61,173 nt of DNA from a virus (IMGVR_UViG_3300045988_099805:1-61173); one strand, 5' to 3'. Positions 55,012 to 55,062 are shown, counted from the stretch's first letter. Notes: generated by a model not told the origin, from the letters alone. Numbers and translations are program-made.

Positions 55012-55062
55012 GACAGACAGACAGACAGACAGACAGACAGACAGACAGACAGACAGACAGAC
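55012..55062 (+). repeat. (GACA)12.75 = (ACAG)n tetranucleotide microsatellite
   Basis: 51 nt. Same unit and same orientation as 51717-51759. Confidence 0.95.

Follow-up and report, generated by a model that had tools for sequence, protein, structure and literature searches.

A hypermutable GACA repeat at the junction between catalytic domain and recognition modules of a split phage C5-cytosine methyltransferase: a probable frame switch

What does a long tetranucleotide repeat do in the middle of a phage DNA methyltransferase gene? In the stretch of viral DNA analysed here (61,173 nt; hereafter, the window), such a repeat follows immediately on motif VIII of a C5-cytosine methyltransferase, where the catalytic domain meets the variable (TRD) region. 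The initial annotation had noticed an (ACAG)n tract at this place, as well as a tract of identical unit and orientation in a PAPS-reductase-family gene, and had proposed that the two genes share a slippage-type switch. Both tracts are indeed perfect repeats, and they lie on the same strand and in the same register. A 20-mer of the GACA unit occurs 14 times in the window and in none of 100 dinucleotide-preserving shuffles. The features concerned are:

51333 to 52527, + strand: PAPS-reductase-family gene; removal of one unit at its tract gives a 396-aa protein
51717 to 51759, + strand: perfect (ACAG)10.75 tract of 43 nt in the PAPS-reductase-family gene, out of frame here
54228 to 55211, + strand: ORF1, the alpha-like part of the methyltransferase (PF00145, TIGR00675), with motifs I-VIII, the GACA tract and one recognition module (..AKTLCARDYKG..GVIEWKN*)
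54516 to 54538, + strand: (ACTT)5.75 tract between motif I and motif IV, coding for TYLLTY just before motif IV (SFPC); it breaks the frame, being one unit longer than the in-frame 19-nt form
54574 to 54576, + strand: nonsense codon (TAA), in frame, that falls in the catalytic loop behind the PC motif (SFPCTDLSVAGK*AGMSKGSG); Gln (CAA or CAG) in relatives
55012 to 55062, + strand: (GACA)12 plus GAC, that is (GACA)12.75, a hypermutable tract of 51 nt (TRF score 102, 100% matches)
55199 to 55956, + strand: ORF2, the beta-like part of the methyltransferase, which carries motifs IX-X as well as additional recognition modules and is interrupted by the G7 run
55272 to 55278, + strand: G7 run that breaks ORF2; G8 would be in frame

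Five interruptions are found in the methyltransferase gene of the window (54228-55956): the ACTT tract, the TAA codon, the GACA tract, a stop/start overlap, and the G7 run. The ACTT tract, the TAA, the G7 run and the natural split into two ORFs had all gone unreported in the initial annotation. Once repaired, the methyltransferase is 576 aa long and matches PF00145 with E = 5e-58, and also TIGR00675. Motifs I, IV (PC), VI (ENV), VIII (QxRxR), IX and X are present in this order, spread in the window over broken frames; within ORF1, the lesions leave the pieces 54228-54590, 54583-55080 and 55063-55211. Among solved structures, the catalytic half is closest to the Mycoplasma CpG enzyme M.MpeI (4dkj / 8c56). 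The variable region is very long and contains repeated recognition-type modules with a T/C-L/I core (AKTLCARDYKG, CPTLRS, APTMNTCGGG and NCLTSV), one of which aligns to the M.MpeI TRD. The enzyme is therefore predicted to be multispecific, with several tandem recognition modules in its variable region.

One of the five interruptions is not a lesion. The initial annotation had treated the methyltransferase as a single ORF, a view that we had to abandon: the gene consists of two overlapping ORFs, and the apparent A5 frameshift is a gene boundary, since the stop/start overlap is conserved across relatives. In the window, the ORF2 ATG at 55199 overlaps the ORF1 stop (ATGGAAAAATTAA; GVIEWKN* / MEKLTD, 55199-55211). 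In relatives with any module type, ORF1 ends in GVIEWK(N)*, and ORF2 begins at an ATG (ATGGAA) located 5-10 nt upstream of this stop and preceded, 7 nt further upstream, by a GGAG. Both the overlap and the GGAG are kept in all module types. A single continuous ORF was seen only in L035 and L073. The gene has a two-ORF layout of the M.AquI type. Programmed ribosomal frameshifting at GGAAAAATTAA was considered and rejected, given that other module types have GAATGGAAGTAATAG without a slippery run and that the ATG and its upstream GGAG are conserved. We also rejected sequencing error as the source of the A5 and G7 "frameshifts": A5 marks the boundary between the two ORFs, which is conserved, and every independent lineage assembly has the same G7.

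ORF2 is open to motif X in about 22 of 58 loci; the others are broken at G-runs inside recognition modules. Such G-runs are found in three different ORF2 modules (L001-L082) and set whether ORF2 is open; among relatives they range from 5 to 9 G, also where the flanks are identical. The distal intact ORF of ORF2 begins with MADVKV at 55330, and a 208-aa gene is called there in all lineage contigs.

Three-frame translation places the tract of the window in a null frame. The methyltransferase frame (ENV...QNRNRCFMFS) enters the tract as (DRQT)n and ends in ..TDLGCRE*, with the stop 6 codons after the tract, while the recognition-type sequence LGLSRMNAILNYNHVNKIDNGVAKTLCARDYKG resumes after the tract in the frame of codon 55080. 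As the initial annotation had calculated, gain of one GACA unit or loss of two fuses both frames. The predicted +1 allele exists: L143, whose tract is 55 nt long, has a fused 210-aa ORF. By our own reading of the sequence, GACA codes for DRQT without a stop in all three frames, so the repeat would be a tolerable linker in any frame. The tract has the marks of a simple sequence repeat (SSR) contingency locus. It is a perfect repeat inside a coding region, with a unit not divisible by 3; its length differs by whole units between identical or near-identical genomes; and in-frame (L143, 55 nt) and out-of-frame (window, 51 nt) alleles both occur in nature.

The differences between near-identical genomes were seen in the window's own lineage, whose members we collected from other human-gut samples by exact-protein look-ups in ENA and Logan assemblies. 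Samples with the lineage include ERZ28619588, ERZ28810479, ERZ27245078 and ERZ28616752. Over 3.3-7.3 kb each, L143, L145, L146 and L151 have no substitution relative to the window, and L144 has one. The sole indels in these five loci are whole units at the three tetranucleotide tracts, together with a 24-nt difference in a 12-nt repeat. Across the lineage, the GACA tract has alleles of 23, 27, 39, 51 and 55 nt, and the PAPS tract has alleles of 23, 31, 35, 39 (in frame, L146) and 43 nt; the ACTT tract is 19 nt long in six samples (L142, L144, L145, L146, L151 and L155) and 23 nt in three (window, L143 and L150). Locus by locus, the tracts are:

Window: PAPS tract 43 nt, ACTT 23 nt, GACA 51 nt
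L143: PAPS tract 43 nt, ACTT 23 nt, GACA 55 nt
L142: PAPS tract 31 nt, ACTT 19 nt, GACA 39 nt
L144: PAPS tract 23 nt, ACTT 19 nt, GACA 27 nt
L155: PAPS tract 23 nt, ACTT 19 nt, GACA 23 nt
L145: PAPS tract outside the contig, ACTT 19 nt, GACA 23 nt
L146: PAPS tract 39 nt, ACTT 19 nt, GACA at least 53 nt (contig end)
L150: PAPS tract outside the contig, ACTT 23 nt, GACA at least 28 nt (contig end)
L151: PAPS tract outside the contig, ACTT 19 nt, GACA at least 28 nt (contig end)
L149: PAPS tract 35 nt, contig without ACTT and GACA coverage
L159: PAPS tract 39 nt, contig without ACTT and GACA coverage
L157: PAPS tract 35 nt, methyltransferase absent

The in-frame PAPS allele of L146 encodes a protein identical to the repaired version of the window. 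Whole-unit length changes among near-identical genomes bear out the slippage proposed in the initial annotation, and the combinatorial in-frame and out-of-frame states that it foresaw do occur as combinations of tract lengths. Invariant lengths, or tracts absent from relatives, were the observations that it had set against a switch. This refutation test fails, because lengths vary in the lineage and among relatives, and relatives do carry tracts.

Repeats of other kinds are present in the window. The 12-nt repeat mentioned above (GAACCATCAGAC x6.5, 56770-56847) belongs to the gene of a DnaD-like replication protein (56428-57225), where it codes for EPTD/EPSD repeats; L145 is longer by two units, a change that is in frame and thus represents length variation rather than a switch. 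A 27-nt tandem repeat (8.4 copies, 93% matches) is found at 42103-42330, inside the ORF at 41733-42554. In addition, a reverse transcriptase gene (47719-48747; PF00078 / phrog_1423) follows two DUF6273 genes and an AAA_15 ATPase, and this region (44005-48747) looks like the neighbourhood of a diversity-generating retroelement. The reverse transcriptase gene is shortened or split in L152 and L158.

A scan of IMG/VR with the catalytic half yielded 323 relatives, and the best 80 of the 323 were examined. These 80 are 90-95% identical over residues 1-260, with no interruption, whatever the frame of the tract. The tract is complete in 61 of them and starts at the same codon. The 61 complete tracts fall into 17 length classes that span 7 to 87 nt; all leave a remainder of 3 on division by 4, indicating changes by whole units only. 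All three frames are populated:

Length 1 mod 3 (frame a): 27 loci, ORF1 product of 341-358 aa
Length 2 mod 3 (frame b): 20 loci, ORF1 product of 308-324 aa
Length 0 mod 3 (frame c): 14 loci, ORF1 stops after two codons (immediate TGA)

This occupancy of 27/20/14 is not significantly different from uniform (chi-square p = 0.12). Among nine pairs of IMG/VR loci with 100% identical 1-kb flanks, five differ in tract length. In twelve of the 80, the contig stops within the tract, and in six of these the tract measures exactly 55 nt; because de Bruijn assembly breaks at the repeat, lengths of about 55 nt or more are lower bounds or unreliable. The contigs that break at the tract are at most an indirect hint of high-frequency reversible switching within a clone.

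The junction also attracts repeats of other units. In some relatives the tract is interrupted (GACATACA or GACAGGCA), and in others a pentanucleotide repeat, (AGAGC)n or (CAGAG)n, stands at this junction instead: in L056 (6780-6840), the closest IMG/VR relative of the window overall, in L100/L101 (6750-6784), in L108 (7210-7254), and in L122/L123 (about 6820-6855). P0027 has an RTEQN repeat there. Outside IMG/VR, megablast of 51000-56200 against INPHARED phages gave no match. The best cultured or deposited relative by protein is 68% identical (Dulem virus 39), and the matches in GTDB genomes are to MAG bins labelled Lachnospiraceae, Bacteroidaceae and Paludibacteraceae.

Behind the tract, two frames are open in 61 of 61 loci. 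In frame b, CVDGTINKPQQREVANCIKARYDCGISNLRSDGNLVV is followed by a stop. In frame a, ALTEQSISHSREKLQTVSRQDMTAEYQTCGQ... continues into the TLxARDYKG module, and the frame ends at the ORF2 start. The two frames are constrained in successive segments, as seen from diversity at codon positions 1/2/3:

First 114 nt after the tract: constrained in frame b; codon-position diversity 1.83/1.99/6.21; synonymous:nonsynonymous 120:90 in frame b and 44:180 in frame a
Next ~110 nt: constrained in frame a; codon-position diversity 0.42/0.64/3.04 and 1.35/1.92/3.5

Complete homologues carry one peptide or the other in frame, the frame-b peptide in P0041, P0026 and L073, and the frame-a peptide in P0001, P0004 and L035. 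Because purifying selection acts on both modules, on each in its respective frame, we infer that the tract switches the enzyme between two forms and an off state. The window itself has lost module B through a 126-nt deletion that runs from the tract between two ACTTG motifs (microhomology; window 55060-55075) and places a P0002 / L033-type module next to the tract. With module B lost, the switch in the window would have two states only, on and off.

We consider it likely that the tract is a slipped-strand frame switch at the boundary between catalytic domain and recognition modules, choosing module A, module B, or off. Replication slippage would add or remove whole 4-nt units and so rotate the downstream frame through three states. 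In most relatives, a length of 1 mod 3 would give the linker followed by module A (TLxARDYKG), with ORF1 ending at the ORF2 start; with a length of 2 mod 3, ORF1 would read module B (CVDGTINKPQQREVANCIKARYDCGISNL...) and then stop; and a length of 0 mod 3 would lead to an immediate TGA, the null state. In the window lineage, the device would be an on/off switch only, currently in the off frame. This reading builds on a hypermutable tract at a conserved site, on the population of all frames, on the two-ORF layout, and on frame-specific constraint. The enzymatic consequences and the adaptive value of the switch are what these sequence patterns would imply; a plausible benefit would be bet-hedging, with varied phage DNA methylation as a safeguard where hosts differ in their restriction systems.

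The second GACA tract of the window lies in a gene that the initial annotation had taken for a DNA-modification gene. That assignment is unproven, and what the protein does offer is a generic PP-loop / PAPS-reductase fold, with the tract sitting in an insertion. It matches only the generic PF01507 and phrog_424. With respect to DndC, SspD and BrxP, we found no specific family match or partner, the BrxP and SspD matches being to the PP-loop only, and all NCBIfam matches were far below their cut-offs. A fold search of its AlphaFold model against the PDB retrieved CysH and APS reductases (TM about 0.6). Thus, the search for a specific function in NCBIfam, PADLOC, and the AlphaFold and PDB fold comparison returned the generic fold alone. 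The tract recurs in this family as well: in distant IMG/VR homologues (46-68% identical), (GACA)3-14 is found at the same site in about 36 of 53, with seven of the tract-bearing homologues in frame and about 28 out of frame, their C-terminal halves still alignable. Closer homologues from the protein collection (92-96% identical) are in frame, with short or interrupted tracts. The gene behaves as a cassette, L056 and L147 lacking exactly 51352-52501, and the methyltransferase is an independent cassette (about 54162-56386) that is absent in L148 and L157.

Where else do long GACA tracts occur? We classified the first 118 listed IMG/VR stretches with (GACA)>=10 (L162-L279). Forty lie behind the C5-methyltransferase domain of the present family, 59 in the PAPS-reductase family, and three in hsdS between its two TRDs; single cases are in a DPPY amino-methyltransferase, a reverse transcriptase and an acyltransferase-3-like gene. 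Nearly all of the long GACA tracts among these first 118 viral stretches thus fall in genes of modification or specificity.

The state of the methyltransferase in the window itself is a separate matter. At the TAA site, 71 sequences have CAA (69), CAG (1) or TAA (1, the window), and both TAA and G7 are present in every lineage sample covering those sites. The ACTT tract is out of frame in 3 of the first eight scored lineage loci and in 0 of 47 relatives with a perfect 19-nt tract (Fisher p = 0.002 for these eight); in about 70 other relatives it is always in frame, either at 19 nt or interrupted. Since it is out of frame in the window lineage alone, relaxed selection there, as in a dead gene, is suggested. 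The sequences thus suggest that selection on the N-terminal half is relaxed in the window lineage and active elsewhere. The methyltransferase of the window is probably non-functional. A change of units at the GACA tract restores the frame there, as the initial annotation had calculated, but because the ACTT tract is out of frame, the TAA is fixed, and G7 breaks ORF2, the GACA tract alone cannot turn the enzyme on here. A functional three-piece enzyme, made by reinitiation at the ATG two codons after the TAA, seems unlikely. We also rejected stop-codon recoding for the TAA, as the only tRNA is a normal tRNA-Gln (anticodon TTG) and not a suppressor. This tRNA-Gln (TTG), at 11118-11189, is near-cognate to UAA. 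We conclude that the tracts of the window lineage keep mutating for mechanical reasons.

The same lesions count against the frame switch and in favour of an unlikely alternative, in which the tract is a neutral microsatellite in a dispensable or decaying gene, its frame states are unselected, and the family consists of more or less broken methyltransferases. With a fixed nonsense codon in the catalytic loop and the G7 frameshift, no switch can restore activity in the window lineage, and the ACTT tract, out of frame in this lineage only, fits relaxed selection. ORF2 is broken at G-runs in most relatives, the whole methyltransferase cassette is dispensable, being missing from close relatives, and neutral microsatellite drift would give the same frame occupancy, which does not depart significantly from uniform. 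However, the catalytic half is free of stops and frameshifts in the 80 IMG/VR relatives, which keep both modules as well, whereas the TAA and G7 are fixed in the window lineage; outside the lineage with the TAA, the ACTT tract is never out of frame. Diversity behind the tract is biased to third positions in two different frames, repeats of different units arose at the same junction, and the long GACA tracts are nearly all in modification and specificity genes (among the first 118). We prefer the frame switch for the family, the enzyme of the window lineage being probably non-functional.

Could the tract instead be mainly a hot spot of recombination or deletion, which reshuffles or removes modules and is not primarily a translational switch? 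The initial annotation had suggested one such event, a 3.3-kb deletion between the two direct repeats, aided by the RecT of the phage. The protein is present:

48744 to 49634, + strand: RecT-like annealing protein (phrog_148, PF03837)

The predicted product of the deletion did not turn up, the gene maps of 24 ENA/Logan lineage contigs (10 maps shown) having no junction of the N-terminal half of the PAPS gene with the C-terminal half of the methyltransferase. Junction scans of IMG/VR and JGI metagenomes gave no match either. These scans carry no weight, because the undeleted-junction control was also unmatched in JGI, and IMG/VR lacks the lineage and a close relative of the PAPS gene. In loci chosen by a PAPS-gene query, the methyltransferase tract is a pentanucleotide repeat wherever the methyltransferase lies downstream, the exceptions being the window, L041 and L064; with a pentanucleotide at the methyltransferase, the two direct GACA repeats are not both present in those loci. 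A broader role in rearrangement would agree with the position of the tract, precisely where the conserved half gives way to mosaic modules, with the 126-nt deletion in the window, which starts at the tract at an ACTTG microhomology, and with P0008, P0010 and P0012 (412-aa proteins), in which (DRQT)n is joined directly to NPSDRT (its DNA contains CAGACAGA). Nevertheless, losses of either gene cassette in relatives have their end points at gene borders and not at tracts, and the observed differences are almost all simple unit changes. We therefore judge this explanation quite improbable as the main role of the tract.

That the length differences are an artefact, with repeats collapsed or expanded by the assembler, is extremely improbable: it is true that contigs frequently stop at the tract and that a tract length of exactly 55 nt, a typical k-mer length, is common, but different whole-unit lengths between identical flanks come from independent projects and assemblers and include tracts shorter than the k-mer, and the large structural ORFs of the window are intact (e.g., 1446 aa), so its assembly is not generally error-prone.

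A wider picture can be drawn around the frame switch, although we offer it tentatively and with more doubt than confidence. This temperate gut phage lineage may possess a stochastic generator of methylation specificity, in which the tetra- or pentanucleotide tract would pick one of two modules or neither, and poly-G runs would switch ORF2 modules in and out. The GACA switch would have been reused in the PAPS-reductase-family gene and in the hsdS of related phages, and the resulting mixture of epigenetic types would hedge against host restriction and methyl-dependent restriction.

How does the locus compare with known systems? Type III mod genes with tetranucleotide tracts phase-vary in Haemophilus and Neisseria. 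As in these and other bacterial SSR methyltransferases, the tract described here has a non-triplet unit inside an ORF, changes by whole units in otherwise identical genomes, and is found at both on and off lengths. In contrast to them, it is phage-borne, lies in what appears to be a split multispecific enzyme at the entry to the recognition modules, and is accompanied by further SSRs in the gene; it is known here from sequence. Mycoplasma CpG C5-methyltransferases contain a poly(G) or poly(GA) tract in mid-gene and undergo phase variation (PMC9465063), and M.MpeI, the solved enzyme nearest to our catalytic half, is likewise a Mycoplasma CpG enzyme. In type I hsdS genes, SSR tracts between the two TRDs toggle between full-length and truncated HsdS, with changes in specificity (NgoAV; survey in PMC7383803). 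The resemblance here is that the repeat stands just before a recognition domain and the frame sets which domains are translated, and three IMG/VR contigs carry the same GACA tract in hsdS itself. The difference is that our gene encodes a C5-cytosine methyltransferase, with two adjacent modules in different frames, rather than one TRD that is present or absent.

Bacillus phage C5-methyltransferases (SPR, phi3T, rho11s and H2) are single multispecific polypeptides without repeats, and we know of no frame switching in these enzymes. Like them, the window family is a phage-borne orphan C5 enzyme with tandem recognition modules between motifs VIII and IX; unlike them, it consists of two ORFs with a repeat tract. 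M.AquI is a natural two-subunit C5-methyltransferase in which the first polypeptide contains motifs I-VIII together with some of the variable region and the second contains the rest and motifs IX-X (PMC3404938). The window family appears to divide its motifs and variable region over two polypeptides in the same way, whereas M.AquI is monospecific, chromosomal, and not controlled by a repeat. In the full texts searched, we found no description of a repeat-controlled phage methyltransferase, although this does not prove that none exists. The words "phage-encoded", "prophage" and "phage genome" do not occur in a 2025 review of phase variation. Repeat-driven phase variation of bacterial methyltransferases is thus known. 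What would be new is its occurrence in a phage, at the junction of catalytic domain and TRD in a predicted split multispecific C5 enzyme, possibly with three states, and with further SSRs in the gene and in the neighbouring cassette.

Phase variation by simple repeats is a textbook strategy of bacteria, usually discussed as a defence against phages. Here the slippage device is on the side of the phage, in its putative anti-restriction methyltransferase, and the repeat recurs at one exact junction in well over a hundred uncultured phage contigs. On a practical level, such loci break assemblies and are annotated as pseudogenes. With three tract frames, two modules and a split enzyme, the system is directly testable. 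If the frame states do correspond to different methylation patterns, epigenetic heterogeneity would be built into phage populations, with consequences for host range, for the outcome of restriction-modification and type IV restriction, and for methylation signals in metagenomes.
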